From contig JAJFVD010000014.1 of assembly GCA_021371955.1 (NCBI GenBank), positions 20,538 through 84,537 of the forward strand: 64,000 nucleotides of DNA, read 5' to 3'. The notes below the pieces were generated by a model. The model worked only from the letters and a program-made list of their open reading frames with translations. It ran no database searches and was not told where the DNA came from. The position numbers were made by a program, and so were the translations under genes. This stretch comes from Bacteroidales bacterium (GTDB lineage: Bacteria; Bacteroidota; Bacteroidia; Bacteroidales; UBA932). Below are positions 14,547-41,099 of the stretch, in pieces (position 1 is the stretch's first letter; every line of letters begins with the position of its first letter).

Positions 14547-14655
14547 TTCCCCTGGGGAAATTTGTTAAGTAGCTCACAGCTTGCAATTTAAACCATTTTC
14601 CCAAAAGTAGCTATCTCATTCATTTTCTGCAAATTAACAAATTTCCCCTGGGGAA
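14547..14655. repeat. 95-bp-spaced inverted-arm element, copy 1 (TTCCCC arm type)
   Basis: TTCCCCTGGGGAAATTTGTTA ... TAACAAATTTCCCCTGGGGAA; core centres 14553/14649 (96 apart). Confidence 0.9.
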
Positions 14656-14713
14656 GGCAGCTCGTGAGGCAATCGCATCATAAAATCCTGTGCTTTTGCA
14701 TCATCAATCCTAC

Positions 14714-14738
14714 ACTCCTGCTTAGGCGGGAGTTTTTT
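14714..14738 (+). terminator. Intrinsic terminator downstream of the pilin gene
   Basis: ACTCCTGC-ttag-GCGGGAGT followed by a T-run. Confidence 0.7.
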
Positions 14739-14867
14739 ATACTATGTAATATGCATAGTGTAACTCATTTTCTCAAATTCTCTTTTTTACACTCTCATTT
14801 GGAATTGATTTAAAATTATCGTTATATTGCGCGCCGTAAAGAAAATTTTAAACAAAACCCTACCTAT

Positions 14868-16400
14868 ATGCTACTTCATCAACAATTTGTACGGATGGCA
14901 AAGAAGCATGCCAAAAAGCTTGCAATTATTGATAGAACAACGGAAAAACGAGTTAATTATTCAACGGCACTTATTGGTGCCCTTATCCTGAATTCTAAAT
15001 TCAAAAAGTATGATGAAGGGTTTATCGGCATTATGATTCCTACTTCCGCAGGCTGCGCGCTTGCAACAGTGGGGGCTTTGATGAGTGGCAGAATACCAGT
15101 GATGATAAATTATTCTACGGGTGCCGAGGCTAATGCAAAATATGCTCAAACGAAGTGCAAATTCAAAACTATAATTACCTCCAAAGCATTGCTGGAAAAA
15201 ATCAACTGCCCTGTTATCGACGGCATGGTAATGATTGAAGATATCATGGCAAGTGTGTCCACCGGCGAAAAGCTGAAGGCCGCTCTCATAAGCAAGTTCC
15301 CTGTAGGCGTTGTCCTCAACAGCATTCATAAGGGGGACGAAAATGACACCGCTGTAATTCTGTTTACAAGCGGAAGCGAAAAGGACCCGAAAGCTGTTCA
15401 GCTTACACACCGCAACATATCTTCAAATATTGAGAATTTTGGCACATACGAAAATATTACAGAATCCGATGTGATTCTGGCGAATCTGGTTTTCTTCCAC
15501 GTATTCGGGCTCACAGTAAACCTATGGGTATCTTTCTATTACGGAATGACCATGGTCTGCTATGCAAACCCTCTCGATTTTGCGACAGTCAGCAAAATTG
15601 CGCGCGAAGAGAAGCCTACGGTTATGGTTGGTACTCCGAGTTTCTTCTGGGGTTATCTGCATAAATCGGAACCGGGGGACTTTAAATCTCTCAGGCTGAT
15701 GGTATCCGGGGCCGACAAATGTCCCGATGCGCTAAGGGAAGGTTTCATGAAAAAACACGGAGTAACTCTGATGGAGGGCTACGGAGCAACCGAGACATCA
15801 CCGGTAATATCTGCAAACTCGCAGGAATTTAACAGGCCGGGAAGTACCGGACGTGTTATTCCGGGTGTTCAGGTGAGGCTGGAGAATTTTGAAACCGGAG
15901 AAGAGTGCAAAACCGGAGAAGTCGGTAAGGTTTTGGTTAAGGGCGATTCTGTTATGAAAGGATATTACGACGACCCTGAACTCACAGCCGAAGCTCTTGA
16001 AGACGGATGGTACAACACCGGCGACATGGGATTCTTCGACGAAGACAACTACCTCTGGCATGCCGGCAGGTTTAAACGGTTTGTAAAGATTGGCGGGGAG
16101 ATGGTTTCTCTTGTCAAGGTCGAGAACACCCTTGAAAAGCACCTTCCAACCGGGGTATCATGCTGCGTTGTGGACATATCCGACGAAAAGAGAGGATCGG
16201 CAATTATAGCAACCGTAACCATTGAAGTGAACAAGGCCGAAATCCTTAAGAAGATGGGCGCCGAACTGCCAAACATCGCACTTCCAAAACAATTTATCGT
16301 TATTCGCGAACTGCCAATGATGGGCACCGGTAAAATCGACTTCCGCACCGTCACGAAGATAGTTCAGGATATCCTGAGCGAGTCCGAAAGCCAGAGCTAG
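14868..16400 (+). CDS. AMP-binding enzyme, similar to the acyl-ACP synthetase half of Aas
   Basis: ILFTSGSEKDPK, YGATETSP, WYNTGDMG, KIGGEMVSL, GTGKID. Confidence 0.85.
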   Translation: MLLHQQFVRMAKKHAKKLAIIDRTTEKRVNYSTALIGALILNSKFKKYDEGFIGIMIPTSAGCALATVGALMSGRIPVMINYSTGAEANAKYAQTKCKFKTIITSKALLEKINCPVIDGMVMIEDIMASVSTGEKLKAALISKFPVGVVLNSIHKGDENDTAVILFTSGSEKDPKAVQLTHRNISSNIENFGTYENITESDVILANLVFFHVFGLTVNLWVSFYYGMTMVCYANPLDFATVSKIAREEKPTVMVGTPSFFWGYLHKSEPGDFKSLRLMVSGADKCPDALREGFMKKHGVTLMEGYGATETSPVISANSQEFNRPGSTGRVIPGVQVRLENFETGEECKTGEVGKVLVKGDSVMKGYYDDPELTAEALEDGWYNTGDMGFFDEDNYLWHAGRFKRFVKIGGEMVSLVKVENTLEKHLPTGVSCCVVDISDEKRGSAIIATVTIEVNKAEILKKMGAELPNIALPKQFIVIRELPMMGTGKIDFRTVTKIVQDILSESESQS

Positions 16401-16410
16401 TTTCGCTGGG

Positions 16411-16469
16411 GACGCCTTTTTCCCCGACGCCCTTTCCCCCGACGCCCTTTCTCCGACGCCGTTTTCCCC
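16411..16469 (+). repeat. 4 tandem ~15-bp units GACGCCNTTTTCCCC
   Basis: Units start at 16411, 16426, 16441 and 16455; the last is the outer half of the copy 2 left arm. Confidence 0.85.
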
Positions 16470-16572
16470 AGGGGAAATTTGTTATGTCGCTCATAACGTG
16501 CAACTTAAACCTCTGAGCCAAAAAGGGCTATTTCATTCATCTACTGCAAATTACCAAATTTCCCCTGGGGAA
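16464..16572. repeat. Inverted-arm element, copy 2
   Basis: TTCCCCAGGGGAAATTTGTTA ... TACCAAATTTCCCCTGGGGAA; centres 16470/16566 (96). Confidence 0.9.
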
Positions 16573-16624
16573 AAACGGCACCCTGACGGTTGGCTGCGCA
16601 CACGGTGTCGGCCTTCCTTCTCCG

Positions 16625-16696
16625 CCTCTGGACTCACCCCTCCACCCTTGGGGTCACCCCTCCACCTCTGGACTCACCACTCCACCCCTGGGGTCA
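16625..16696 (+). repeat. Tandem 20-bp units in an ABAB pattern
   Basis: cctctggactcacccctcca / cccttggggtcacccctcca / cctctggactcaccactcca / cccctggggtca. Confidence 0.85.
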
Positions 16697-16788
16697 TTTG
16701 GTACTCCACTGGTTATAAGCCAATTACCAAAATCACTTAAAACACTAAGTACCTGTAAATATGCACGATACCAAATGACCCCTGGGGT
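16684..16788. repeat. Inverted-arm element, copy 3 (ACCCC...TCATTTGGTA arm type)
   Basis: ACCCCTGGGGTCATTTGGTA ... TACCAAATGACCCCTGGGGT; centres 16689/16783 (94). Confidence 0.9.
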
Positions 16789-16864
16789 GGTGAGGGGGCC
16801 GTTTCGTACGTCGAAGCACCAAAAACGAAAAATCATCGTAATTTCGCAGGAAATTTCGGAACAG

Positions 16865-17377
16865 ATGCCAGACTTGGGGAGCAGCTTCGCAGCCATAGAC
16901 TTTGAAACCGCAAACGGATACCGGTGCAGCGTGTGCAGCGTTGGAATCGTGATTGTCCGTAACGGCCGGATTGTTGACTCCATATACAGGCTCATCCGCC
17001 CTGTGCCAAACTTCTACAACTACTGGAACACCCGCGTCCACGGACTCACTGCTCAGGATACCAATGATGCTTATGAGTTTCCAATGGTATGGGCCGAGAT
17101 TTCACCGCAAATTCAGGGGCTGCCACTGGTAGCGCACAACAGTCCTTTTGACGAAGGGTGTCTCAAGGCAGTTCACAACCACTTTGACATGCCCTACCCG
17201 GGATACCAGTTTCACTGTACTCTGCGTGCCTCGCGTCGCCTCTTTCCACACCTCTCAAATCATCAACTCCACACCGTATCCGCCCATTGCGGCTTCGACC
17301 TAAAAAACCATCACAACGCCCTTGCCGATGCAGAGGCCGCTGCAGTCATTGCCCTAAAAGCTTTTTCCCGTTCCTGA
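16865..17377 (+). CDS. DEDDh 3'-5' exonuclease (DnaQ-like)
   Basis: IDFETAN, LVAHNSPFD, HHNALADA; start trimmed to ATG 16865 because the upstream extension is repeat-derived. Confidence 0.9.
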   Translation: MPDLGSSFAAIDFETANGYRCSVCSVGIVIVRNGRIVDSIYRLIRPVPNFYNYWNTRVHGLTAQDTNDAYEFPMVWAEISPQIQGLPLVAHNSPFDEGCLKAVHNHFDMPYPGYQFHCTLRASRRLFPHLSNHQLHTVSAHCGFDLKNHHNALADAEAAAVIALKAFSRS

Positions 17378-17513
17378 AACAGGTTGTCTTACTTTCGCCG
17401 CAAAAATATTTTCGCCACCAAATGGGGCAAGATAGGTGCTCCTGCGTCGCAGGTCTACGCCTTCGGCGGCAAAACCGCACCATATTTGCTAGTAATTGAT
17501 TGTTGACCAAAAA

Positions 17514-17558
17514 ATTGTTAAAGATTTTGAGATATGATATCTCAGAATCTTTAGCAAT
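17514..17558 (+). other. 22-bp-arm near-perfect palindrome
   Basis: ATTGTTAAAGATTTTGAGATAT-g-ATATCTCAGAATCTTTAGCAAT; both mismatches are T/G pairs. Confidence 0.7.
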
Positions 17559-17654
17559 CATCTAACAATCAGCAACATCCCAAGAACAAAAAGGAACAAA
17601 AAGATTGTATTTCTTTTTGTTCATAGGAATTATCTGCAAAACAGGTCGTTGACT

Positions 17655-17694
17655 AAAAACATAGCGGCCGGAACCCTGAGGTTCCGGCCGCTAT
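17655..17694 (-). terminator. Intrinsic terminator of the minus-strand M28/DUF6263-like operon
   Basis: Perfect 15-bp stem ATAGCGGCCGGAACC-ctga-GGTTCCGGCCGCTAT; T-run on the minus strand. Confidence 0.8.
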
Positions 17695-17726
17695 ACAACA
17701 TTCTCAATCAATAGTTTATCTATATA

Positions 17727-18575
17727 TTACAGTTCAACTGTTGTCGAAATAACCTTCACTTTCTGGGTCATTGGAATGCTCATGTTCTGCTGGCCGCTTA
17801 CAGTTATTGTTGAATTCATTTCGGTATTGCCCTCAGAATATACAACAATCGATGCAGTCGGGTCGAAATAGAAGAAACCGGTAACCTCGCCTGTACCTTC
17901 AAGGAACAGATCCATGTTCATTTGTTTACCTTTTCCTGCAAGTTCCATAGATGATTTATAGCTGATTTTGTAAACATTCTTACCTTCTCTCATCTCTTTG
18001 CCAACTAAGGTGTATTCTGTTTCCATGGCTGTTGTCATTAATGACATCGGATTAGAAGGACCATTGTTAACTGTATCAATCTGTTTTTCATTCCATACTT
18101 CGCCTACTTTCACCTCTCTTGCAGGGAGTGCCTGTAGTTTCACAAATCCCTGGAAAGAGCCAACTTTCGAAAAGTCTTCGGTTGTGTCAATTAGTTTGCC
18201 TGATATGGATTTACCGGTCTGGTCGTATTCTGCGCAAATATTTTCCTTTTTGAAATCGCTTTTTTTGACAACATCTTCTTTGCCCATTGCCACTGTTGTT
18301 GCAGCTAAATCAAGAATTGTCACAAGAGCAGTAGCGTTATTTTTCGCATCTACTTTTGAAATTTTGTATTCCGATACAACACCAACATTACTTGTTGCCT
18401 TCATTTCCTGACCCATCATAGACTGAACCATCTCGTTAGTGAGGTTCATAGTTGTTTTAAAGGATTTTCCCTCTTTGAAATTATACTTCAGCATAACTGA
18501 TTCCTGTCCGAACGATGCGTTAGATGTAATTACAAATACGAATAGAAGCGTGAGTGTTAAAAAAACTCTTTTCAT
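17727..18575 (-). CDS. Exported protein, DUF6263-like
   Basis: Signal peptide; LKYNFKEGK, Q.MMGQ.M pattern; beta-rich; family assigned from memory. Confidence 0.55.
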   Translation of the reverse strand: MKRVFLTLTLLFVFVITSNASFGQESVMLKYNFKEGKSFKTTMNLTNEMVQSMMGQEMKATSNVGVVSEYKISKVDAKNNATALVTILDLAATTVAMGKEDVVKKSDFKKENICAEYDQTGKSISGKLIDTTEDFSKVGSFQGFVKLQALPAREVKVGEVWNEKQIDTVNNGPSNPMSLMTTAMETEYTLVGKEMREGKNVYKISYKSSMELAGKGKQMNMDLFLEGTGEVTGFFYFDPTASIVVYSEGNTEMNSTITVSGQQNMSIPMTQKVKVISTTVEL

Positions 18576-18601
18576 TTTTTGATGTGTTAATTATTAATTG
18601 A

Positions 18602-20170
18602 TTATTTATTTTTCAGAATCTTGAAATACTTATTATCGTTCGCGATTGACCAGGTTGTCCGGAAAATGAGACGGGAAATTCTGGTAGCCTTTGTGTGGTT
18701 AATTGTGTTTGGATTGTCCCTTACCGTATGATAGTCTTTATGCAGACCGCTTGTAATATCCACTCCGGAAATGCCTTTTACAAAGAAGTTGTAATGATCG
18801 CTCCGGCCAAACATATCTTCTCCCGAAGGAACATACTTAAGTCCTACGCTCTCGTTCTCTTTCAGAATTAATGCAGTAAGGTCAGGATTTATTGATGCAC
18901 CTTCGATATTGAGAGTGTCGTTTCCGTTACGTCCAATCATGTCCAGATTTAGCATTGCAACTGTTTTGTCCAAAGGGAAAAGCGGATGGTTTGAATAGTA
19001 TGCCGACCCGTAAAGACCCATCTCTTCTGCTGTAAACAGAATAAACAACACGCTTCTGCGTGGTTTTTGCTTCATTGAGGTAAATGCTTTTGCTATTGCC
19101 ATCACACCGGCAGTGCCTGATGCATTGTCATCTGCCCCGTTATATATGTAATCTTCCCCGGCTTTATGTTCTTTGTTATATCCCACATGGTCGTAGTGTC
19201 CGCCGATAACAACCAGTTCGTCACCGGTTTTTTCATCGGTCCCTTTTATAAATCCAACTACATTTTTTGAAGAGTATTCCTTATATGTGAGTCTGGTAGA
19301 TAAATCGCAATTGAATCCAGCGAGCGGGAATGAATTTGGCTTAAGCGTTTTGTCTATAGTTATTTGAATCTTTTTTAAAGAATCTACACTTCCAAACAGC
19401 TGTTTTATAATGTTTTCCCCAACCTGTGCAACGGGGATTTCGCTGCCGTCTCTTTTATCAAGTTGTATAGGCAGATTATCCTGTGGAAGAAGTTTAGAAA
19501 GGCTCGGCCACGGATATCCCTGAGGTTTAAGCATTATATGGTTAATGGGGTCGGTTACAAGCAATAAGCCAGATGCGCCATGTTTTTTTGCATTTTCCAG
19601 CTTCGTTGCCAAAAATGAATATTTTGATTCATTCTTCCCTCCAAAAACAGATGTCGTATCGTTTTCTCCCGGCTCGTGCCTTAGTACAAGTACAATCTTT
19701 CCCTTTACGTCCAGCCCGTTGTAATCGTCGTAGTTATATTCCGGAGCTGTAATTCCGTAACCCGCAAAAACAATTTCTGCCTTGACCGAACCGTTTAAAG
19801 TCATTTCAAACGGAATAAAATCGGTTTTAAGCTGATATTCTTTGCTGGTATTGTTACCTGAAATTTTGAGGAAACTGTTTTGAGTATCCAGATTTTGCGA
19901 ATAAAAACCAACTGTCTGAAAATAGCTTCCATTAATTTTGTCCAGTTTAAATTTTTCAAACTGAGCAGCTATATAATCTGCAGCTAAATCGAGTTCATTG
20001 CCCGGAGCCCTCCTTCCAAGGAGAGAATCCGATGCGAGGAAATCTATGTATTCCTTTAACAATTCGTTAGTTATCCGTCGCTCCCCTTTCTCAACTCTTT
20101 GTGAGAACAGTTTTTCAGGGAACGAGAAACACAGGGTAATAATAATTACAAGTAGCAGTGACCTTTTCAT
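18602..20170 (-). CDS. M28-family aminopeptidase with PA domain
   Basis: GGHYDH, GADDNASG, AEEMGL, LNLDMIGR, RSDH; signal peptide. Confidence 0.9.
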   Translation of the reverse strand: MKRSLLLVIIITLCFSFPEKLFSQRVEKGERRITNELLKEYIDFLASDSLLGRRAPGNELDLAADYIAAQFEKFKLDKINGSYFQTVGFYSQNLDTQNSFLKISGNNTSKEYQLKTDFIPFEMTLNGSVKAEIVFAGYGITAPEYNYDDYNGLDVKGKIVLVLRHEPGENDTTSVFGGKNESKYSFLATKLENAKKHGASGLLLVTDPINHIMLKPQGYPWPSLSKLLPQDNLPIQLDKRDGSEIPVAQVGENIIKQLFGSVDSLKKIQITIDKTLKPNSFPLAGFNCDLSTRLTYKEYSSKNVVGFIKGTDEKTGDELVVIGGHYDHVGYNKEHKAGEDYIYNGADDNASGTAGVMAIAKAFTSMKQKPRRSVLFILFTAEEMGLYGSAYYSNHPLFPLDKTVAMLNLDMIGRNGNDTLNIEGASINPDLTALILKENESVGLKYVPSGEDMFGRSDHYNFFVKGISGVDITSGLHKDYHTVRDNPNTINHTKATRISRLIFRTTWSIANDNKYFKILKNK

Positions 20171-20280
20171 TTCTAAAATGCTTATTGTCTGCAAAATTAT
20201 ATATTTATTTGGGATTTACTCTTTTAAGCATCATAATGTGTAAATAATCCTGCAATGCTATGCTTTGTGGGACGCAGTTT

Positions 20281-20389
20281 TTCCCCAGGGGAAATTTGTT
20301 ATATCGTTCATAATGTGCGACTTAAACCCACAAACCAAAAGGGACTATCTCATTCATTTTCTGCAAGTTAACAAATTTCCCCTGGGGAA
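20281..20389. repeat. Inverted-arm element, copy 4
   Basis: TTCCCCAGGGGAAATTTGTTA ... TAACAAATTTCCCCTGGGGAA; centres 20287/20383 (96); interior similar to copies 1 and 2. Confidence 0.9.
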
Positions 20390-20509
20390 AAACGGCACCC
20401 AAGGTTGGGCGGCAAGGGTGGGCGGAACAGGTGTGGTCGGTGAGAAAGGGGTAAAAAGAACATTTAAAATAATTTTCCTATCTTTATATAATTGGTAAAA
20501 CCATTATCC

Positions 20510-20857
20510 ATGGATAAACTTTCATTCACAATTGACTCTGTAATCTTTGACAACATAGTCAAAGGAAAACAAAAGGCTTTTGTAGCAAGCATCAAACCTT
20601 CTGAAATCCAGGACTACTTCTGCTATACTCTTGAGAAAAAAATCGATGTCAAATATTTTAATTGCATTGAATTTAAAACCACGACAGCAGACGGGGCAGA
20701 GAAATCGGCCCGGTTCAAAATCGGATATGCCGAGATGGATTTCCTTATTCCTAATGAGTTGCTGGACAAGGCAAACGAAGACCTCACTACTCTTTACGAC
20801 AGCGACCACATGCCCCCTGCCGAAATCGTATTTGAGATAAAGGAAAAACTGGATTAA
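20510..20857 (+). CDS. Divergent ASCH/PUA-like protein
   Basis: N-terminus LSFTIDSVIFDNIVKGKQKAFVASIKPS aligns with the neighbouring ASCH protein but lacks ExR. Confidence 0.5.
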   Translation: MDKLSFTIDSVIFDNIVKGKQKAFVASIKPSEIQDYFCYTLEKKIDVKYFNCIEFKTTTADGAEKSARFKIGYAEMDFLIPNELLDKANEDLTTLYDSDHMPPAEIVFEIKEKLD

Positions 20858-20895
20858 TCTGATTTCAACATTGCGCCTTACTCTTTTGACTATAC

Positions 20896-21282
20896 ATGAA
20901 AACCCTTACCCTCAGCATCAAGCAGATTTACTTCGACCAGATCCTGGCCGGGACCAAAACAATTGAATCGAGAGAAGTGAAACCTTCAAACGCCTCGAAG
21001 TATGTATATTTCACAGATCTCGACACCCATATAGAGTATAAAAACTGGAGCGACATCCCGGACAATGTTGGCAATATATGTGTTGAGCCGGTAATGTACG
21101 ATTCCATCCGCCTACTCACCGGAGCCTATAAAGGTACACGCCCGTCCTGCACAGTAGAGGTAAAGGGTGCCGAAGTAATTTTCCTTATGGACGACAACGA
21201 AGAGCAGGTTTATTACGATGCCGACGGAATTGAATTTCCGGCACTGGTTGTGGATTATCAGCTTGGTGCAATTCTGGTCTGA
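20896..21282 (+). CDS. ASCH-domain protein
   Basis: LSIKQIYFDQILAGTKTIESRE contains GxKxxExR. Confidence 0.8.
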   Translation: MKTLTLSIKQIYFDQILAGTKTIESREVKPSNASKYVYFTDLDTHIEYKNWSDIPDNVGNICVEPVMYDSIRLLTGAYKGTRPSCTVEVKGAEVIFLMDDNEEQVYYDADGIEFPALVVDYQLGAILV

Positions 21283-21309
21283 AACAGATTCTCCCATTAG
21301 GTTTTTTCT

Positions 21310-21317
21310 TATATTTG
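21310..21317 (+). promoter_or_regulatory. Bacteroidota -7 promoter box
   Basis: TATATTTG 26 nt upstream of the DUF1295 start. Confidence 0.55.
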
Positions 21318-21342
21318 TTCAACCCTAAAACCCCTACAAACT

Positions 21343-22224
21343 ATGGAGAATATTCTTTTGGATCTTTTTGCCGGGGACATTCAAATTGCAAACATCGCAC
21401 AAACATGGATCGGATTAATGATGATTGTGACGCTTGTTTGCTTTATAGTTTCGGAAATCACCCGAAATTACAGTCAGGTGGACAAACTCTGGAGCCTGAT
21501 GCCCATTGCATACGCAGGAATAACTCTTGCCGGATTTCCGGCTTCGCCCCGTTTGTGGCTGATGACAATTCTCGTTGCAGTATGGGGCTTCCGCCTGAGT
21601 TATAATTTTTCGCGAAAGGGCGGCTACAATAAAATTCCGTGGAGAGGGGAAGAGGATTACCGATGGAAAATAATGCGGGAGCAACCTGCCCTTAACGGAC
21701 GGTTTCGTTTCGGAATATTTAATCTTCTGTTTATTTCATTTTATCAGCAACTGCTGATAATGTTGTTTTCAACTCCATTGCTTGTGGCTGCTCAGTTCAA
21801 CGAGAAACCGTTTTCTATTTATGATGCAATCCCGGCCTTGTTTATGGCTATTTTTATAATAACCGAAACCATTGCAGACAACCAGCTCTTCTGTTTTCAA
21901 CAGCAAAAAAAGAATCAACGTCCAAAAGAGACCCGTTTAGAAGAGTCGCTAAGGAAAGGGTTCATGTCTCAGGGATTGTTCAGTAGTGTGCGTCACCCCA
22001 ACTTTGCATCCGAGCAGGCAATCTGGCTGAGTTTTTATTTCTTTAGCGTAACAGCATCGGGAGACTGGCTAAACTGGACCGCAATTGGTGTTCTTCTGCT
22101 GATATTACTCTTCCAGGGCAGCAGCGTACTCACCGAGAACATAAGCTGCAACAAGTATCCCGAATATGCCGCATATCAGAAAGCAGTACCGCGCTTTATC
22201 CCCAACCCGTTCCACCGAAAATAG
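21343..22224 (+). CDS. DUF1295 (steroid 5-alpha-reductase-like) membrane protein
   Basis: NYSQVDKLWS, EDYRW, ADNQL, GLFSSVRHPNFASE, YAAYQKAVPRFIP. Confidence 0.85.
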   Translation: MENILLDLFAGDIQIANIAQTWIGLMMIVTLVCFIVSEITRNYSQVDKLWSLMPIAYAGITLAGFPASPRLWLMTILVAVWGFRLSYNFSRKGGYNKIPWRGEEDYRWKIMREQPALNGRFRFGIFNLLFISFYQQLLIMLFSTPLLVAAQFNEKPFSIYDAIPALFMAIFIITETIADNQLFCFQQQKKNQRPKETRLEESLRKGFMSQGLFSSVRHPNFASEQAIWLSFYFFSVTASGDWLNWTAIGVLLLILLFQGSSVLTENISCNKYPEYAAYQKAVPRFIPNPFHRK

Positions 22225-22226
22225 CA

Positions 22227-22262
22227 CAGGCGGCGGCGTAGAAGGAACTACGCCGCCACCTG
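22227..22262 (+). terminator. GC-rich hairpin after DUF1295
   Basis: CAGGCGGCGGCGTAG-aaggaa-CTACGCCGCCACCTG; weak U-tail. Confidence 0.5.
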
Positions 22263-31859: not shown

Positions 31860-31876
31860 CAAAAACATAAACATCT

Positions 31877-32653: not shown

Positions 32654-32722
32654 ACACCTATATAATAAGCAGAACAGGGCATCTGGAGGCGAATTGAAAA
32701 TCCTAACGCATAAACATAGCAT

Positions 32723-32803
32723 TGCCACCTAATTGTTGAGGACGATTCGGCCGGACGCAGCGAAGCGTAGGAGGACGCACAAGCCCTCAACAATTAGGTG
32801 GCA
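32723..32803. repeat. 81-bp element with perfect 19-bp terminal inverted repeats
   Basis: TGCCACCTAATTGTTGAGG ... CCTCAACAATTAGGTGGCA around a 43-nt GC-rich core. Confidence 0.8.
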
Positions 32804-32848
32804 GTGTATAGATGTCAGAGATAAAAACTCAATTCGACGCCGGAGACA

Positions 32849-33628: not shown

Positions 33629-33643
33629 GATTTTTGTTTTTTG

Positions 33644-33749
33644 ATCCCTCGGTTTTCGTGTTAAAAGCCGGAGAATCATATAGTTAGTAAATATGTTGTT
33701 GTTTGATAAAGCATTGTTAATTAGCGAATTAACACGGAAACCGAGGGAT
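33644..33749. repeat. Inverted-arm element, copy 5 (variant arms)
   Basis: ATCCCTCGGTTTTCGTGTTAA ... TTAACACGGAAACCGAGGGAT (20/21 complementary); centres 33649/33744 (95). Confidence 0.75.
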
Positions 33750-35443
33750 TAAAGCCTATTCCACTTTCCGAAATTCTCGCCATATCCAAAGTTGATATCA
33801 ATGGATGTAGCAGGGGTTTTCCCGTCTCCGTTGAGTTCAAATGTAATAGGGAACCCGTGTCCGTCGCTGCGGAAAGTGTAATCATTCCCGTTTTTATGGA
33901 TCAGTTTGTGCTTCCACCCTTGTGGCCCAACGGTAATATACAAATCTTCCCCTTCAAGGGTAACTACTGCCTTTCCAAAAAGTTCCCCTTTGTCATAAAC
34001 ACCTGTCAGCAAAGCTTTATCCGGAGCCGGTTTAACAACAAGTTCCTTTTTCTGTTTGACTGCTTTTAATGCTCCCTCTTTTTCCGACTTCTTCCAGTTC
34101 TCAAAGTATTCTTTACTGTAATCCTTTGTAGGATAACCCTTATACAAATCAATCAGCCTCCGCATCAATGCATATCTCGGACTGTCCGGAGCCTCTGAGT
34201 TTACAAGGACAACGAGTCCAAGGTTAAGTTCGGGAACGAAAGCGGCTAATGTTGTAAAGCCCCAGGTTGTGCCTGTGTGGAAATACAATCTGTATCGGCT
34301 GTTTTGCTCAATGAACCAGCACTGGCCGTATAGTGTCGTGCGGGTTGAGTCCTGCGAAGTTATTGTTTGTCCTCTGTGGAGGTAGTTCATGTTTTTACGG
34401 CTGATTACCTCTTTGCCGTTTACCTTACCTTTGTCCAGATGGAACTGAATATATTTTGCCATATCGGTGGCCGATGAAACAACTGAACCTGCCGGGCCAA
34501 CAACTGTGAGCCAGAAAGGAGCCTGCTCTTCGCCATACATTGCCTTGATGGAAAGCGAATCTGTCCATGTTGTGTCGTTAATTATTGCTCCTTTTTCATA
34601 GTTTAGTTCGTGAGGAACCGATACATTTTTTGCAGCAAGGAAGCCGTCGCCGTTAAGTGTGCTGTTAACCATTCCCAGAGGCATAAAAACTCTCTCCCTC
34701 ACATTGTCTTCCCAGCTTTTGCCGGTAAGCTTTTCAATAATCTTCTGAGCAATTATGAATGTAATATTGTTGTATTCGTATGCTCCGCGGAAACTGTATC
34801 CCGGTTTTAGAAGCGGAAACATTTTGTACACATCGTCCCTTGAGTAGCCAAGATTGGGGATGTATGTTCCCTGCTGGCCCTTAATGCCGGTGCGGTGAAT
34901 CATGATATCCTTAACCTGAATGTTCTCCTCTACCCACTTGTCATAAAGCTTAAAATCAGGAAGAATATTCTTGACGGTGTCGTCCCATTTGATTTTACCT
35001 TCGTCAACCAAAGATGCCATTACTGCTGCGGTAAACGATTTGGAAACCGACCCAATCTGGAAAACTGTATTTTCATCTACAGGCAATTTGCCATTGATGT
35101 CCTTCACACCAAAACCCTTTGCGAATACAAGTTTCCCATCTTTCATAACAGAAACTGCCATTCCTGGAATCATCCACTCTTTTTGCACCTTGCCCACATA
35201 GGATTCAAATTCCTTTATGATTTGTTCATTGGTTAGTGCTGCAACTGCCGGCGGGGCAACGGGAAGCGCAGGTTTCGCTACAGGTTTTGCCGCAACCGGT
35301 TTTTTGACAGTTTGGGTAACAGTTTGTTTAACCGGACTTTTAGCGGTCTGCGGATTAGTATTTGTTTGCGCAGATAAATTGGTAGAAATTGACAGTACAA
35401 AAGCGAGTGTCAGAGATGAAATTAAAATCAGAGGGGTTTTCAT
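33749..35443 (-). CDS. Beta-lactamase-family serine hydrolase with C-terminal extension
   Basis: SxxK (SVSK), YxN (YNN), HTG; signal peptide and Pro/Ala/Lys linker. Confidence 0.88.
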   Translation of the reverse strand: MKTPLILISSLTLAFVLSISTNLSAQTNTNPQTAKSPVKQTVTQTVKKPVAAKPVAKPALPVAPPAVAALTNEQIIKEFESYVGKVQKEWMIPGMAVSVMKDGKLVFAKGFGVKDINGKLPVDENTVFQIGSVSKSFTAAVMASLVDEGKIKWDDTVKNILPDFKLYDKWVEENIQVKDIMIHRTGIKGQQGTYIPNLGYSRDDVYKMFPLLKPGYSFRGAYEYNNITFIIAQKIIEKLTGKSWEDNVRERVFMPLGMVNSTLNGDGFLAAKNVSVPHELNYEKGAIINDTTWTDSLSIKAMYGEEQAPFWLTVVGPAGSVVSSATDMAKYIQFHLDKGKVNGKEVISRKNMNYLHRGQTITSQDSTRTTLYGQCWFIEQNSRYRLYFHTGTTWGFTTLAAFVPELNLGLVVLVNSEAPDSPRYALMRRLIDLYKGYPTKDYSKEYFENWKKSEKEGALKAVKQKKELVVKPAPDKALLTGVYDKGELFGKAVVTLEGEDLYITVGPQGWKHKLIHKNGNDYTFRSDGHGFPITFELNGDGKTPATSIDINFGYGENFGKWNRL

Positions 35444-35546
35444 ATTTAATTATATCAGGTTTTCTTTCTTAAAATGCAGCAGGCATTGCACGCACGCAAC
35501 ACAAAGATAATTATATTTGTAAAGTAATAATCAATTTCAGAAGGGT

Positions 35547-36965
35547 ATGGCTAAGGTAAAAAAGGGGTGGTTCTGCACATCGTGTGGCAACGAAAGTGCA
35601 AAGTGGCTGGGCAGATGTCCCGCCTGTGGAGAGTGGAATACTATGCAAGAGGAGATTATAACAAAAGACGCCTCTTCCGGCGGAGCGAGAGGGTCCGGAT
35701 TTTTTTCTTCCCGTACGTCAAAACCCGAACCTCTATCGGCAATAAAATTTTCCGAAGAGGAGCGTATTTCCCTTGGAAATGCAGAGCTTGACAGGATTCT
35801 TGGCGGCGGACTGGTGGAGGGTTCTGTTATTCTCATTGGCGGAGAACCCGGAATTGGAAAGTCTACTCTATCTCTTCAGATACCTCTTCACTGCCCCAAT
35901 CTTAAAACTCTTTATGTTTCGGGAGAGGAGAGCGCAAGGCAGATAAAACTCCGCGCACAAAGGCTTGGCGGCGACGATTCCAATTGCCTTATCCTAAGCG
36001 AAACACTGCTGGAAAACATTCTTAATCAGGCAAAGGAAACCGACCCCCAGCTTATTATAATTGACTCAATTCAAACAGTATATTCCCAGATTCTCGAAAG
36101 TTCCCCGGGTTCTGTAACCCAGGTGCGCGAATGTGCCGCAATGCTCATGAAATATGCAAAGGAGACTAATACTCCCACTATTCTCATCGGCCACATTACA
36201 AAAGACGGAAGCATAGCGGGGCCAAAGGTTCTGGAACACATAGTTGACGTTGTTCTTCAGTTTGAAGGGGATACACGGCATTCATACAGAATTCTGCGAA
36301 GTATAAAAAACAGGTTTGGGTCAACTGCCGAACTGGCCATCTTTGAGATGATAAATACCGGGCTTCGCGAAGTGAGTAACCCTTCCGAAATGCTCATCCC
36401 CATGCACGGAGAGAATCTTTCCGGGATTGCAGTTGCTGCCATGCTGGACGGAACACGGCCGTTCCTTATCGAGACTCAGGCTCTGGTGAGCACAGCCGCA
36501 TACGGAACTCCTCAGCGTTCGGCCACCGGCTTCGATGTAAGGCGCACAAACATGTTGCTTGCCGTTCTTGAAAAGAGGGCCGGATTCAAACTTTCTGTAA
36601 AAGATGTTTTTCTGAATATGGCCGGTGGCCTCAAAGTAACCGACCCTGCCTGCGACCTGGCGGTTGTATGCTCAATTCTCTCTTCCAACTTCGATGCGCC
36701 AATTTCGCAGCGATATTGCTTTGCCGCAGAGGTTGGGCTTAGCGGTGAAATTCGTCCCGTGAGTCAGGTTGAGCGGCGGATTGCCGAGGCCGAGAAACTT
36801 GGATTCGAAAAAATCTTCATCTCCTCTTTTGGCAAGCCAAACGGCTCTTCCACCAACGCTTCCCTGAGCTCTGCAAAGAATGCATCAGCAGCAAAACTTA
36901 AAAACAAAATTGAAGTAGTGGCCGTTCAGGACATCCCCGAACTTGTGAGAAAACTGTTCAAGTAA
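35547..36965 (+). CDS. radA: DNA repair protein RadA/Sms
   Basis: C4 zinc finger, GEPGIGKST, KNRFG, Lon-like C-terminal domain. Confidence 0.96.
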   Translation: MAKVKKGWFCTSCGNESAKWLGRCPACGEWNTMQEEIITKDASSGGARGSGFFSSRTSKPEPLSAIKFSEEERISLGNAELDRILGGGLVEGSVILIGGEPGIGKSTLSLQIPLHCPNLKTLYVSGEESARQIKLRAQRLGGDDSNCLILSETLLENILNQAKETDPQLIIIDSIQTVYSQILESSPGSVTQVRECAAMLMKYAKETNTPTILIGHITKDGSIAGPKVLEHIVDVVLQFEGDTRHSYRILRSIKNRFGSTAELAIFEMINTGLREVSNPSEMLIPMHGENLSGIAVAAMLDGTRPFLIETQALVSTAAYGTPQRSATGFDVRRTNMLLAVLEKRAGFKLSVKDVFLNMAGGLKVTDPACDLAVVCSILSSNFDAPISQRYCFAAEVGLSGEIRPVSQVERRIAEAEKLGFEKIFISSFGKPNGSSTNASLSSAKNASAAKLKNKIEVVAVQDIPELVRKLFK

Positions 36966-37037
36966 AATCTTCGCGGAAGTTTTTCACCTCCACGGTCACG
37001 TGTGGAGTCAGCTGTTCACCTCTTGGGCCAACCATTC

Positions 37038-37142
37038 ACCCCTGGGGTCATTTGGTACAGCACACAAAATCAACAACTTACTTAAAAAGCACTTTTTCGT
37101 AAACGGCTAATATATAGGTATTTGCCAAATGACCCCTGGGGT
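37038..37142. repeat. Inverted-arm element, copy 6
   Basis: ACCCCTGGGGTCATTTGGTA ... TGCCAAATGACCCCTGGGGT; centres 37043/37137 (94). Confidence 0.9.
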
Positions 37143-37193
37143 GCTCGGGGCCGGGGCTGGTGCTGCGGGTGGGTGCTGCGGATGGGAGGAGCA

Positions 37194-38258
37194 CTACAAG
37201 AAGAACAATGCTACCCCTCCAACACTGAGCACTGCTCCTGCGAGCTCAACCAGTGTGATTTTCTTTTTATAGAATAAAATATACGGAACGAGTATTATTA
37301 TGGGGGTTGTTGCCATAATTGTTGATGCTATTGCAGTATTTGTATACTGAACAGCCATCAGCGAAAGAGAAACCCCTACAAACGGGCCGAATATGGCACC
37401 CATAAAGGTTGCGCCCATTGCCTTTTTATCTTTGATACCGGCCCACACGGTTCCGGTCCTGCGAGTAATAAGGATTATCACGGCAAAACCAATTGCACCG
37501 GATATAATCCGCATTTGTGTTGCTGCAAATGGAATGTATGAGGCGACTTCAGATCCCTTTGCTGCAATTGAATAGTGGTTCATCCCTATTTTGCTCAGTA
37601 CAATGCCAAAGCCCTGCCCCAGCGCAGCTCCAATTCCAAGTAGAATCCCCTTTAGCGGCAGATTAAGCTGGACATTTGGCATCAGCTTACCTACAATGTT
37701 CTTTCCGCCGTTTACAACTCCGTATATGGCGCCTTTCTTCTCAACTTTCTCTTCTTCGTCTTTACTTGTTACAACAGCCATATCGCTCACTCCTGCAACT
37801 ATTGCATTATCCTCAATCTTTGACCCTCCCCTCTTTAGAACAGAAATAGCGATACCCAGAAGCGTAACCGTCATACCCACAAATCCCATTGGAGAGAGTT
37901 TTTCCCCAAGGAGGAGCCATCCGAAGAAAGCAGCAAAAGGAGGAGCAAGCGTCATTAGAAGCTGACCGAATCTTGCAGTGATGATTGTATACGAATAAAA
38001 CAGACAGAAGTCCCCAAACACAAACCCAACAAGTCCGGACAGAGACATCCATATCCAGGTGCCGGCATCTGCATTTTGAGGGATGTACGACCCTGTGGTG
38101 AAATAAAGCATTGTACCAAGAAGGAAAAAGCCGAAAAAGAGCCTTAGCAGGTTCACAACTAAAGAGCCGATTCTTTTACCGGCAAATTCAAAAAACAGAG
38201 CCGTGAAAGTCCAGGAGACCGCAACGGAGATTGCTATTAGTTCACCAAAGTTTTGCAT
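37194..38258 (-). CDS. DMT/EamA-family transporter
   Basis: Two EamA repeats of about 5 TM each, joined by a long hydrophilic linker. Confidence 0.85.
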   Translation of the reverse strand: MQNFGELIAISVAVSWTFTALFFEFAGKRIGSLVVNLLRLFFGFFLLGTMLYFTTGSYIPQNADAGTWIWMSLSGLVGFVFGDFCLFYSYTIITARFGQLLMTLAPPFAAFFGWLLLGEKLSPMGFVGMTVTLLGIAISVLKRGGSKIEDNAIVAGVSDMAVVTSKDEEEKVEKKGAIYGVVNGGKNIVGKLMPNVQLNLPLKGILLGIGAALGQGFGIVLSKIGMNHYSIAAKGSEVASYIPFAATQMRIISGAIGFAVIILITRRTGTVWAGIKDKKAMGATFMGAIFGPFVGVSLSLMAVQYTNTAIASTIMATTPIIILVPYILFYKKKITLVELAGAVLSVGGVALFFL

Positions 38259-38345
38259 TCCTATTATTTAAAGAACGCAAATGTAAGAAATAAAATGGCC
38301 ACACAGTTACACCAGACCGCACCACACTTTTTCCACCACACTGTT

Positions 38346-38453
38346 TTCCCCAGGGGAAATATGTTATAATACACACTATCAAGGCATTGTGGCTATTTCT
38401 GAAAACGCATAAACTATTGATTAACTACACTTTAACAAATTTCCCCTGGGGTA
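38346..38453. repeat. Inverted-arm element, copy 7
   Basis: TTCCCCAGGGGAAATATGTTA ... TAACAAATTTCCCCTGGGG; centres 38352/38447 (95). Confidence 0.9.
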
Positions 38454-38460
38454 GACACAC

Positions 38461-38485
38461 AAAGAGCGGCAAAATTTGCCGCTCT
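38461..38485 (-). terminator. Intrinsic terminator after DUF805
   Basis: AGAGCGGCAAA-a-TTTGCCGCTCT hairpin; short T-run on the minus strand. Confidence 0.65.
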
Positions 38486-38510
38486 CGAAATTTCATTTCC
38501 GGAAAAGATT

Positions 38511-38867
38511 TTAAACAGACTGAACAGCCTTAGGGTCAGAACCGTATTGGTTGTCTCCAGCATCTCCTTCCTTCAGGAAAAGAATCAGCAACCAGATCTG
38601 TCCGATTACCGGAATAAGAAAAAGGAGAATGTAGAATCCCGATTTGTTGATGTCGTGCAATCTTCTGAAAGTTACTGCCAGTGTAGGAATTAGTACAAAA
38701 AGAGAATACAGCCCGCCAATGAAGCTATATGTCCACATAATCCTGTCCAGTAACATGATTAGGGCAGAAAAAATTAAGTTAAAAAGCAAAAATACCCAGA
38801 ATTCGGTTCTTCTTGCGCGGCCTTCGAAGCCTGCATAGTTTCTTAAAACTTTCAAATACCACTCCAT
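38511..38867 (-). CDS. DUF805 (YhaH/YhaI-like) membrane protein
   Basis: MEWYLKVLRNYAGFEGRARRTEFW, RRLHD, GDNQYGSDP; start trimmed to ATG 38867. Confidence 0.9.
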   Translation of the reverse strand: MEWYLKVLRNYAGFEGRARRTEFWVFLLFNLIFSALIMLLDRIMWTYSFIGGLYSLFVLIPTLAVTFRRLHDINKSGFYILLFLIPVIGQIWLLILFLKEGDAGDNQYGSDPKAVQSV

Positions 38868-38925
38868 AGTTTTTAGGTTTAAGGGTTTACTCACCAAATT
38901 TAGAATATAAATACCATAATCCCAA

Positions 38926-39035
38926 GTACCCCATAGGAATATTGGTATAACATTGGAATAGCGGCGTTTATGAAACATTCTAAATACCAACAAGTGCCTT
39001 ACTCACAATACTATAACAACATTCCTATGGGGTAC
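38926..39035. repeat. Inverted-arm element, copy 8 (variant arms)
   Basis: GTACCCCATAGGAATATTGGTATA ... TATAACAACATTCCTATGGGGTAC; centres 38933/39028 (95). Confidence 0.8.
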
Positions 39036-39080
39036 GGGGGTTTGGTTTAGTCCTCCCGGACCGAAGAGTTGCTCCTCTCA

Positions 39081-39131
39081 CCCTCGTTTTCCACCTCCGT
39101 TTTCCACCCCGTTTTGCACCCCGTTTTCCCC
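39081..39131 (+). repeat. 4 tandem 12-13-bp units CCCCGTTTTCCA
   Basis: Units start at 39081, 39094, 39107 and 39119; the last runs into the copy 9 left arm. Confidence 0.8.
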
Positions 39132-39233
39132 AGGGGAAATTTGTTATTATGCTGGTATTAATGGCGTTATGAATATTTTGAAAAACAAACAAATCGCTTA
39201 TTTACTGCGTTTTAACAAATTTCCCCTGGGGAA
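39126..39233. repeat. Inverted-arm element, copy 9
   Basis: TTCCCCAGGGGAAATTTGTTA ... TAACAAATTTCCCCTGGGGAA; centres 39132/39227 (95). Confidence 0.9.
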
Positions 39234-39280
39234 AAAGCCTGCCCTGGGTGGGGGTGGGTTCGGGAGGGCCGGCTGCCGGG

Positions 39281-40582
39281 CTACAAATACTCGTCGTATG
39301 CTGCCATGTCGAGCAATCCGTGACCGGAAAGGTTGAACAGAATTACTTCGCTGCGGCCTGCTTCGCGGGCCTTGAGGGCTTCGCGGATTGTAACGGCAAT
39401 TGCATGACAGGATTCCGGTGCAGGAATTATCCCCTCGGTGCGGGCAAAAAGTAGTCCGGCATTAAAGGTTTCGGTCTGTTCCACAGCAACGCTGTTTATA
39501 AAACCATCTGCCTTAAGCTGGCTCACAAGCCTTCCACCACCGTGGTACCTAAGCCCTGCTGCGTGAATCTGATCCGGCGCAAAATCGTGGCCAAGTGTGT
39601 ACATGGGAATAAGCGGTGTCATCCCGGCGGTATCCCCAAAGTCATATTCAAGAACACCCTTTGTGAGTTTTGGACATGCGGCCGGTTCGGCAGCGATGAA
39701 TTCCACCAAAGCCTTCTTACTTCCGGCCGGAGAGGTAAACCTGTGCCTTAAGAACGGGAAGGAAATCCCGGAAAAATTTGAGCCGCCTCCAAAACAAGCA
39801 ATAATTTTGTCGGGATATTCACCTGCAAACTCCATCTGTTTTTCGGCCTCAAGCCCTATTATGGTCTGATGAAGGAGCACATGATCCAGCACGCTGCCGA
39901 GGGTATACCTTGTGTTGGGTTTTGTCACTGCCATCTCAACGGCTTCAGAAATTGCAATTCCCAAACTTCCGCGGCAACCCGGATCTTCACTTAACATTTT
40001 CCTGCCATACTCCGTAATATTTGATGGAGATGCATGAACTGCAGCACCATAGCTGTTCATTACGATTTTACGGTATGGTTTGGCTTCGTAACTCTGTTTA
40101 ACCATAAACACGTTAAGATCCATGCCGAATTGTTTGCACGCTATACTCATTGCCGAGCCCCACTGGCCCGCACCGGTCTCGGTTGTTATGTTGGTGATTC
40201 CCTGTATATGATTGTAGTACGCCTGAGGAATTGCTGAATTCAGTTTGTGGGAGCCAACCGGACTCACGCTTTCGTTCTTGAAATATATTTTTGCCGGGGT
40301 ATCCAGCGCCTTCTCCAGAGCAGTTGCCCTTACAAGAGGTGTTGGCCGGTATATCTTGTACAAATCAAGAACCTCCTCAGGGATATCGTGCCATCGCTCA
40401 GAAGAGAACTCTTGTTCCACAAGTGCTTTAGCAAAAAGACCTTCCATCTCCTGAGGAGTTACAGGTACTTTTGTTTGTGGGTTAAGAAGTGGCTTTGCCT
40501 TGTTAGGCATGTCGGCCGCGATGTTATACCATTGCTTTGGTATTTCGCTCTCCGGGAGCACGATTTTTTTGGTTCTTTTCAT
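39281..40582 (-). CDS. trpB2: Tryptophan synthase beta chain, TrpB2 type (stand-alone)
   Basis: 433 aa; KNESVSPVGSHKLN, TETGAGQWG, GGGSN, NLSGHG; no trpA adjacent. Confidence 0.92.
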   Translation of the reverse strand: MKRTKKIVLPESEIPKQWYNIAADMPNKAKPLLNPQTKVPVTPQEMEGLFAKALVEQEFSSERWHDIPEEVLDLYKIYRPTPLVRATALEKALDTPAKIYFKNESVSPVGSHKLNSAIPQAYYNHIQGITNITTETGAGQWGSAMSIACKQFGMDLNVFMVKQSYEAKPYRKIVMNSYGAAVHASPSNITEYGRKMLSEDPGCRGSLGIAISEAVEMAVTKPNTRYTLGSVLDHVLLHQTIIGLEAEKQMEFAGEYPDKIIACFGGGSNFSGISFPFLRHRFTSPAGSKKALVEFIAAEPAACPKLTKGVLEYDFGDTAGMTPLIPMYTLGHDFAPDQIHAAGLRYHGGGRLVSQLKADGFINSVAVEQTETFNAGLLFARTEGIIPAPESCHAIAVTIREALKAREAGRSEVILFNLSGHGLLDMAAYDEYL

Positions 40583-40607
40583 TTTAAAAAGATTTTAATT
40601 TGAATTT

Positions 40608-40717
40608 GCACCCCAGGGGTTTCATGGTAAAACCCTGAGATTCTTATATTTAATAATTAACCATGTTTTTCATAACATCTTGTTTTTCTTCATCTTACCA
40701 TTTGACCCCAGGGGTGC
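40608..40717. repeat. Inverted-arm element, copy 10
   Basis: GCACCCCAGGGGTTTCATGGTAA ... TTACCATTTGACCCCAGGGGTGC; centres 40615/40710 (95). Confidence 0.85.
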
Positions 40718-40772
40718 TGGCTCTCTTGTTTTTCACCACTTGAGTCAGATATCCGGTCTCTGAGGCAGGCAT

Positions 40773-40804
40773 AAAAAAAGAGTCCGATGCGTGAGCACCG
40801 GACC
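40773..40804 (-). terminator. Attenuator terminator of the trpB2 leader
   Basis: Minus strand GGTCCGGTGC-tcac-GCATCGGACT-C-TTTTTTT. Confidence 0.85.
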
Positions 40805-40839
40805 CTGTATAATATGGTTTAGTAAAATCTACCTATAAC

Positions 40840-40929
40840 CTACCTATCAATACACATACAGCTTAGCTCACAAACCGGATAAAGTCTGTGCCACCACCAT
40901 GATTGTGTATTAAGAAGTGCGCTATTCAT
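40840..40929 (-). CDS. trpL: Trp attenuator leader peptide (29 aa), absent from the ORF track
   Basis: MNSALLNTQSWWWHRLYPVCELSCMCIDR*; three consecutive TGG codons at 40899-40891. Confidence 0.85.
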   Translation of the reverse strand: MNSALLNTQSWWWHRLYPVCELSCMCIDR

Positions 40930-40933
40930 ACTG

Positions 40934-40941
40934 CAAATGTA
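40934..40941 (-). promoter_or_regulatory. Bacteroidota -7 promoter box for the trp leader
   Basis: TACATTTG on the minus strand, 4 nt before the leader ATG. Confidence 0.7.
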
Positions 40942-40991
40942 AATAAAATTTGAATCTCTGATAATTTTTTTTGTGCACCACACAGAACTTT

Positions 40992-41099
40992 TTCCTCAGG
41001 GGAAATTTGTTACTATACAGACATTCAGAACATTATACCTTTTTCAAGTAGACAGCAAGTTATTGATTAACTGCGCTTTAACAAATTTCCCCTGGGGAA
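40992..41099. repeat. Inverted-arm element, copy 11
   Basis: TTCCTCAGGGGAAATTTGTTA ... TAACAAATTTCCCCTGGGGAA; centres 40998/41093 (95). Confidence 0.9.

Follow-up and report, generated by a model that had tools for sequence, protein, structure and literature searches.

What are the short inverted-arm elements that recur at an almost fixed length in the genome of an uncultured, Rikenellaceae-like member of the Bacteroidales, and what moves them? The question is raised by a 64,000-nt stretch of DNA (here called the window; C12:20538-84537, G+C content 42%) from the source genome G000, which comprises 2.50 Mb on 16 contigs. In an initial annotation of the window, 11 such elements were listed and regarded either as an apparently undescribed family resembling REPINs or miniature inverted-repeat transposable elements (MITEs) or as a phased protein-binding or looping site. 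The analysis presented here indicates that they are very probably REPIN-like, non-autonomous single-strand-DNA repeats with their own RAYT-family enzyme (RAYT, tyrosine transposase associated with REPs; REP being short for repetitive extragenic palindrome). They are a variant of the known REPIN-RAYT system and not a new kind of element.

All 11 copies were found where they had been annotated. Their core centres are separated by 96, 96, 94, 96, 95, 94, 95, 95, 95, 95 and 95 bp (elements 1 to 11), identical to the distances listed before, and their inverted arms of 19-38 nt enclose 64-69 nt. The arm motif CCCCWGGGGNNATTTGKTA (up to two mismatches) has 17 matches in the window compared to 0.02 expected from 100 shuffles. 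The narrow spacing extends to the whole genome: 26 successive CCCCWGGGG pairs are 94-96 bp apart, any other spacing below 400 bp was seen once each, and all 27 elements that passed a strict pairing filter have centre distances of 94 (n = 6), 95 (n = 15) or 96 bp (n = 6). An nhmmer profile yielded 30 copies of the arm types A, B and D in G000. With four type-C copies, the total of all types amounts to about 34, 14 of which (41%) are located on the 92-kb contig C12. The absence of elements from 42-64 kb of the window was borne out, as was the location of the window elements in intergenic regions or at gene ends, several of them between convergent genes. The window had also been described as devoid of transposases and recombinases. 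Indeed, Y1_Tnp, Phage_integrase and DDE_Tnp_1 have no match on contig C12, and DDE_Tnp_1 (PF01609) has none anywhere in G000. A search of the window against Rfam at gathering thresholds was without a match.

The probable partner gene and its distribution

A candidate for the enzyme was found outside the window. A search of all of G000 with the Pfam family Y1_Tnp (PF01797) revealed five genes. One of them (C9:181960-182715), encoding a protein of 251 aa, is situated between two type-A elements (C9:181810-181922 and C9:182779-182891), which have the same orientation and interiors that are 91% identical. The protein contains the motifs NHVHLL (HUH) and YILLNP and scores 35 bits against PF01797 (cut-off 23). 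Its sole NCBIfam match at E<=0.01 is NF047646, REP-associated tyrosine transposase, which is matched over profile positions 2-146 of 146. In a Foldseek search, an AlphaFold model of the protein (13 homologs, pLDDT 83.5) matched best to 4ER8, the complex of E. coli TnpA-REP with a REP hairpin (E 6.7e-7, target TM 0.73), followed by structures of the TnpA proteins of ISDra2 and IS608. At the C-terminus, about 100 extra aa are predicted to form a helical domain. An identification of this domain as DnaA-C or helix-turn-helix (HTH) could not be supported (no Pfam or PDB profile match, Foldseek E ~1). A search for a RAYT or an IS200-type TnpA, as suggested in the initial annotation, thus leads to a RAYT-family gene outside the window that is bracketed by two type-A copies. 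Motifs, predicted fold and location support the 251-aa HUH/Y1 protein encoded on C9 as the putative partner enzyme of the elements.

Scans for the arm pattern covered 41 genomes (25 of the genus, including G000) and, separately, G048, the complete chromosome of a 'Bacteroidales bacterium' (OY782180.1). RAYT genes were surveyed in all 52 genomes of the genus. Besides G000, only G048, G013 ('Rikenellaceae bacterium UBA9571') and G016 ('Bacteroidetes bacterium CTSoil_029') carry the arm pattern among the genomes of the genus that were scanned. Exactly these arm-carrying genomes have counterparts of the RAYT gene, namely an ortholog of 96% identity in G016, an ortholog of 88% in G013 and an allele of 59% in G048. 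A scan of 185,579 species returned multi-copy matches only in these three metagenome-assembled genomes (MAGs) and in one contig of 2.2 kb. Among 200 genomes sampled across the order, the focal RAYT clade was not detected outside the genus at E<=1e-30.

In all four species, the RAYT locus is located between tsf and a TonB-dependent receptor gene, and each genome has one gene of this type. The G016 and G013 orthologs are bracketed by type-A elements and occupy the same locus as the G000 gene. The 59% allele of G048 at this locus is bracketed by type-B doublets at 94 bp. Around the two alleles (L009; G000 C9:181740-182980 vs. G048 C1:1875300-1876500), the flanking DNA is 92-98% identical, and at one border each genome retains a remnant core that belongs to the other type. 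Type-A as well as type-B elements occur in both genomes. Homologs of 45-48% identity are encoded in seven species (G008, G015, G018, G022, G050, G056 and G060). They are bracketed on both sides by doublets with the arms GCCTCAGAGGAAAAGTGTCAAAC, whose cores are exactly 95 bp apart. This means that the arm sequence tracks the enzyme lineage and that the geometry is constant. Altogether, the RAYT gene lies between complete doublets in at least 11 species.

Genome comparison thus establishes a linkage between enzyme and repeat that is conserved across species, a co-variation of arms and RAYT lineages at 95 bp, and gain, loss and decay of copies, which are described below. The bracketed gene, the co-occurrence of gene and repeats and the filled and empty sites corroborate the previous idea that a RAYT-type HUH transposase mobilizes a REPIN/MITE-like family.

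The 2.2-kb contig (CAZRMB010000425.1, L030) was assigned to a 'Syntrophomonas' MAG. It carries one type-A and one type-B element, close to G000 C5:49681-49956, and is probably a mis-binned Bacteroidales contig.

Dyad architecture, turnover and orientation

Each element is a dyad of two half-units of about 47 nt. From outside to inside, a half-unit consists of an outer TTTT, the 9-bp palindromic core CCCCWGGGG, the inner arm AAATTTGKTA and interior motifs in a fixed register. After alignment on the core centres, conservation and complementarity are strong from -8 to +14. In 16 of 22 arm pairs (types A-D and the CCTCAGAGG clade), both sides have changed and pairing is kept, so that the exchanges are compensatory. 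In single-stranded form, the elements are predicted to form a hairpin whose stem has about 22 bp and whose AT-rich loop has about 66 nt, with z-scores of -5 to -7.5. A small subterminal hairpin within each half, as in IS608, is not supported, since no intra-half pair reaches 70% except via an invariant T at +36. A 5' GTAG is not present in the arms (TTCCCCWGGGGAAATTTGTTA).

The interiors contain bases common to both halves. Read 5' to 3' from the respective core, these are a C (+20), an A (+23), an A (+25), a T (+27), an A (+29) and TTA (+35-37); the T of position +36 is invariant in 54 of 54 halves. They are kept as bases and not as pairs. TTA and a block resembling ATTATC/GATAAT are found again in the CCTCAGAGG clade. 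Length differences of 1-2 nt are located at the dyad centre. The interiors had been characterized as strongly diverged. They are diverged, but this is not the whole story, as both halves preserve bases in a fixed register. Similarly, the statement that geometry matters more than sequence holds for the 95-bp spacing, which is kept across lineages with different arms, but has to be qualified because interior sequence motifs are kept, too.

As a rule, the 5' outer flank is rich in C and the 3' outer flank rich in G. In some copies (e.g. C1:52154, window position 38346 and one copy in G016), the arm type switches exactly at the core. At C5:354300-354360 of G000, a lone palindrome of about 30 nt, AACAACCAAACGACCCCAGGGGTCATTGTT, is present in which a core has inner-arm sequence on both sides. 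A junction of right end and left end would have such a layout, and so would a primordial single palindrome.

Around the elements, G048 and G016 share 91-97% DNA identity with the window. Comparison of filled and empty sites in relatives, another proposal of the initial annotation, uncovered sites that lack the element, contain a solo core or have a decayed copy. This applies to six of the 11 window sites in relatives with 79-97% flanking identity. In the comparisons of filled and empty sites with G048, G016 and G013, no flanking target duplication was found at any filled site.

An unsupervised assignment of the interior polarity placed 23 of 27 G000 copies in one orientation. Of the copies on the G048 chromosome, all four at 0.63-1.27 Mb are in '+' and 13 of 15 at 1.33-2.04 Mb in '-' orientation. 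This pattern would fit targeting of one replication strand. It is only suggestive, because dnaA and a noisy GC skew disagree on the origin and the copies, some of them orthologous, are clustered. In G048, dnaA is located at 11 kb, and the sampled, noisy GC skew changes its sign near 0.2 and 1.6 Mb. In G000, nearly all copies reside in DNA with negative skew and, hence, provide no contrast for a strand test. The cumulative GC skew of G000 has its minimum near C5:70 kb, and an element cluster (C5:49-56 kb) is located close by. In G048, the sampled skew turns from negative to positive at about 1.55-1.68 Mb, far from dnaA and close to an element cluster at 1.61-2.04 Mb.

Proposed mechanism and alternative explanations

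How might the enzyme act on the repeats? RAYT would bind each half-unit in a fixed register, possibly via its extra C-terminal domain. Such binding would keep length and register while other bases drift, and the interior pattern is what a sequence-specific protein that reads each half in a fixed register would produce. Characterized RAYTs cut single-stranded DNA beside REP between C and T or between C and A, which results in a 3'-OH and a 5'-phosphotyrosine link (PMC8266576). In the elements, the core centre reads CA or CT on both strands. A model in which RAYT nicks single-stranded DNA between C and W at the core centre is proposed tentatively, with slightly more doubt than confidence. It is consistent with the stutters, which stop precisely at CCCC on what would be the 3'-OH side, with solo cores at orthologous sites and with arm types that switch at the core. 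Solo cores, type switches at the core and tandem stutters might be by-products of nicking combined with hairpin-assisted repair or slippage.

A more elaborate scenario interprets these traces as scars. Either strand would be nicked between C and W, and the 3'-OH would prime short slipping synthesis, yielding the stutters that end in CCCC and the C-rich 5' and G-rich 3' flanks. Copying of one arm off the other, primed by the hairpin, would keep the arms matched and yield the mirrored changes of types C and D. Exchange from core to core would swap 95-nt units, or indeed complete RAYT cassettes, between sites. A RAYT dimer would act as the ruler behind the length of 95 bp, with its extra C-terminal domains reading the interior motifs in both halves. 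Taken as one joint claim, this chain of nicking, slipping synthesis, hairpin copying, core exchange and dimer ruler is rather unlikely to hold in its entirety.

Several observations weigh against the assignment of the elements to a REPIN-like system with its own RAYT. The match to NF047646 scores 57.5 bits and, thus, remains below the curated cut-off of 80 bits, and a phmmer search of the PDB with the focal protein found no relative. The C-terminal domain has no Pfam match at E up to 10 and no PDB profile match, and its last three helices resemble the HTH domains of DeoR and sigma-4 weakly (Foldseek E ~1). Types B, C and D are without a cognate RAYT in G000, so that cross-mobilization or an orphan status must be assumed. 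Unlike REPINs of groups 2 and 3, the elements have neither a 5'-GTAG nor a compact REP stem-loop per unit. The orientation bias is derived from copies that are clustered and partly orthologous and from a noisy GC-skew map. On both sides, elements 2 and 4 have at least 17 nt outside their cores in common, which speaks for a copied unit longer than the segment from core centre to core centre. The idea of a strict centre-to-centre mobile unit of 95 nt is weakened by this finding. Moreover, the solo cores could equally originate from host replication slippage between palindromic cores.

How does the system compare with those already known? As in the REPIN-RAYT systems of Pseudomonas and Enterobacteria (groups 2 and 3; Bertels and Rainey, 2011, PMC3116915) and the REPtron of E. 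coli, a single-copy HUH/Y1 gene is bracketed by its presumed repeat, an inverted doublet of about 100 bp that folds into a hairpin, is extragenic, occurs in tens of copies and displays compensatory arm changes. The gene is inherited vertically at a fixed locus, and the best fold match is 4ER8. Unlike in these systems, the half-unit of about 47 nt contains a palindromic core together with interior motifs in a fixed register, the protein has about 100 aa more and scores below the NCBIfam cut-off, only about 34 copies are present and the host belongs to the Bacteroidota.

A second group of Y1 genes has been described under three names, as TIRYT/TIRtron (TIR, terminal inverted repeat; Di Nocera et al., 2013, PMC3733652), as TnpA-Y1 subclass 2.1 (Quentin et al., 2018, PMC6006769) and as RAYT Group 1 (Bertels, 2017, PMC5581495). 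TIRYT genes are flanked by inverted repeats with the motif GGGGWSAS (PMC3733652). The signature of subclass 2.1 comprises NHVH, W[EQ]/FQ, Y[IV]xLNP, a length of about 238 aa and a C-terminal HTH-type extension; no REP-like neighbours of these genes were found by Quentin et al. (PMC6006769). For TIRYT/subclass 2.1/Group 1, moderately abundant repeat families organized as dimers have been reported. In the focal protein, NHVH, an FQ-type motif (FS here, FQ in the paralogs), YILLNP, a length of about 240 aa and a C-terminal extension fit this description. It resembles subclass 2.1/Group 1/TIRYT by published motifs, length and extension. No Bac_DnaA_C or HTH Pfam domain was detected in its C-terminal part, unlike in subclass 2.1. 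The flanking inverted repeats carry a GGGG-W-S-A-like motif that agrees with the TIRYT motif in part: Type B (GGGGTCAT) fits GGGGWSAS in 7 and type A (GGGGAAAT) in 6 of 8 positions, and the CCTCAGAGG clade has no match. Unlike in TIRYT, complete doublets of fixed length instead of single TIRs flank the gene. Common to the IS200/IS605 insertion sequences (IS; IS608, ISDra2) and the system described here are the HUH/Y1 fold, a likely single-stranded substrate, the absence of target duplications and, possibly, an orientation that is polar relative to replication. Unlike in IS200/IS605, the gene is neither multi-copy nor bounded by IS-type subterminal hairpins. Given the published REPIN-RAYT and TIRYT/TIRtron Y1 genes (PMC3116915, PMC3733652, PMC6006769), 'apparently undescribed' was too strong a term for the family. 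The present system differs in the complete doublets on both sides of the gene, in the 95-bp geometry and interior register that are constant across enzyme lineages with different arms, in the stuttered flanks and in the swap of RAYT alleles that two near-identical genomes show at one locus.

Could the 110-bp elements be MITE-style internal deletions of an autonomous TIRtron (arm - Y1 gene - arm), with the arms representing its terminal inverted repeats? Both the 7/8 fit of type B to the TIRYT consensus (PMC3733652) and the RAYT cassette alleles of G000 and G048, which were exchanged between cores at one locus like a unit, would agree with such a descent. It is nevertheless improbable: In at least 11 species, complete doublets and not single arms are found on both sides of the gene, the same in-register interior motifs in both halves are not what a random internal deletion would create, and RAYT is single-copy per type, with paralogs that are just 33-38% identical. 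A role as regulatory or architectural sites of the host, e.g. phased protein-binding sites, looping sites or bidirectional terminators with an incidental or secondary link to Y1, is very improbable. Dyad symmetry and bases in a fixed register do look like the site of a dimeric protein, and all copies are intergenic, several of them between convergent genes or at gene ends. However, copies are present or absent between species with 91-97% surrounding identity regardless of the orientation and function of the genes, the neighbours are unrelated housekeeping genes, 41% of the copies are concentrated on one 92-kb contig, and the family follows the RAYT allele from species to species. The originally considered phased site for host protein binding or looping is not needed and fits the presence/absence polymorphism poorly.

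Terminal inverted repeats and small size are also properties of classical MITEs moved in trans by a DDE transposase and of integron attC-like sites, but the chance that the elements belong to either class is almost negligible. Filled and empty sites differ without a target-site duplication, G000 has no DDE_Tnp_1 match and contig C12 no tyrosine recombinase, and the GTT...AAC polarity is opposite to that of the attC R''/R' boxes. A DDE-dependent MITE was rejected on account of the missing target duplication and the lack of a PF01609 match in G000, an integron attC site on account of the reversed GTT/AAC polarity and the lack of an integrase on contig C12.

Individual elements and further repeat families

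The window elements (all given without strand, with centre distances in bp) can be described one by one. Element 1 (14545-14657; distance 96) has type-A arms (TTCCCCWGGGGAAATTTGTTA); its site at 14547 is empty in G016 and shows an internal deletion in G048. Element 2 (16461-16574; type A, 96) is preceded by a stutter on the + strand (16411-16469) composed of four tandem GACGCC-(N)TTTYCCCC units (GACGCC-TTTTCCCC), each of which ends at the CCCC of the left core. At this site (16464), G048 has neither element nor stutter and reads only ...GCGCC-TCCCC at the place of the latter. Element 3 (16681-16790; type B, ACCCCWGGGGTCATTTGGTA; 94) has an orthologous copy in G048 (site 16684). Element 4 (20279-20391; type A, 96) is located in a divergent intergenic region. 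Its site (20281) is filled in G048 and G013, and G016 is without the element and without its C-rich/G-rich flanks. Element 5 (33640-33753; type C, ATCCCTCGGTTTTCGTGTTAA; 95) is predicted to form a 25-bp stem (z = -6.0) and has orthologous copies in G048 and G016 (site 33644).

Element 6 (37035-37143; type B, 94) lies between the convergent genes radA and EamA. The site (37038) is filled in G016 and G013 and reduced to a solo core, ACCCCTGGGGT, in G048. Element 7 (38343-38455; 95) combines type-A inner arms with a right outer half GGGGTA; the interiors of its G048 and G016 orthologs are just 65-66% identical to its own (site 38346). Element 8 (38926-39036; 95) has type-D arms (GTACCCCATAGGAATATTGGTA), which are mirrored in both arms. 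Its site (38926) is empty in G048, G016 and G013, and its interior is 62% identical to that of the adjacent element 9. The latter (39123-39235; type A, 95) has a stutter on the + strand (39085-39130), GTTTTCC(A)CC(C)C with about four repeats (GTTTTCCACCCC-type units), which ends at its left core and is not present in G048, G016 and G013. The site itself (39126) is filled in G048 and G016 and contains a solo core in G013. Element 10 (40608-40717; 95), a diverged type B (GCACCCCAGGGGTTTCATGGTA), is located upstream of a PALP (TrpB-like) gene. Its interior is identical in G048, and in G013 the left half alone is left (site 40608). Element 11 (40989-41101; type A, 95) at the 3' end of a prmC-like gene is filled in G048 and reduced to one arm in G013 (site 40992).

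Upstream of the TrpB-like gene, a Trp leader-peptide attenuator has been proposed (window 40773-40941), and element 10 is located between attenuator and start codon. In G013, the right half of element 10 is gone up to the terminator.

The genes next to the elements are housekeeping genes. They encode an AMP-binding enzyme, an RNase T-like exonuclease, an M28 peptidase, RadA, an EamA transporter, a DUF805 protein, the PALP/TrpB-like enzyme and a PrmC-like methyltransferase.

The other four Y1 genes of G000 encode RAYT-like paralogs of 259-293 aa that are 33-38% identical to the focal protein. Three of them, L001 (C6:219697-220476), L003 (C5:10403-11200) and L005 (C6:275150-275953), are flanked by palindromes of about 41 nt, which differ from one another (e.g. 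TACTAAAAAGGATAGCATCTTAGATGCTATCCTTTTTAGTA and TATTAATAGTTCAGGCGCTTGAAGCGCCTGAACTATTAATA). L004 (C5:390022-390903) is found among copies of a 128-bp inverted-repeat family (CATCTGCCATTCCAAATAGCAAG...). All five Y1 genes are mutually 33-38% identical, and each has different flanking repeats. This means that several RAYT/repeat systems coexist in one 2.5-Mb genome.

Further repeats were observed in G000. An unrelated 83-bp inverted-repeat family (TGCCAMCTAATTG...GGGCGATTCGGCC...CAATTAGKTGGCA) is present at window positions 32720-32806 and at about 25 other places of the genome; at several loci, it is nested in an inverted-repeat element of 155-160 bp with GGCGGCGAGTTGT ends. An inverted-repeat family of about 128 bp with the arms CACTTTGACGCAGTTTGAGGTAA occurs at C1:46228-46381, C3:73937-74048, C5:114825-114953 and C10:118867-118994.

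REPIN-RAYT systems have been studied well almost only in Proteobacteria with GTAG-tagged REPs. The genus analysed here offers a natural series of RAYT lineages that are 45-96% identical and have different arms, but the 95-bp doublet and the interior register in common. In MAGs of this group, the repeats also indicate where assemblies break and where indels are frequent. Together with a sister genome that displays empty sites, solo cores and a RAYT swap, the series makes it possible to test whether RAYT reads arm sequence, register or hairpin, where it cuts, and how enzyme and repeat co-evolve.

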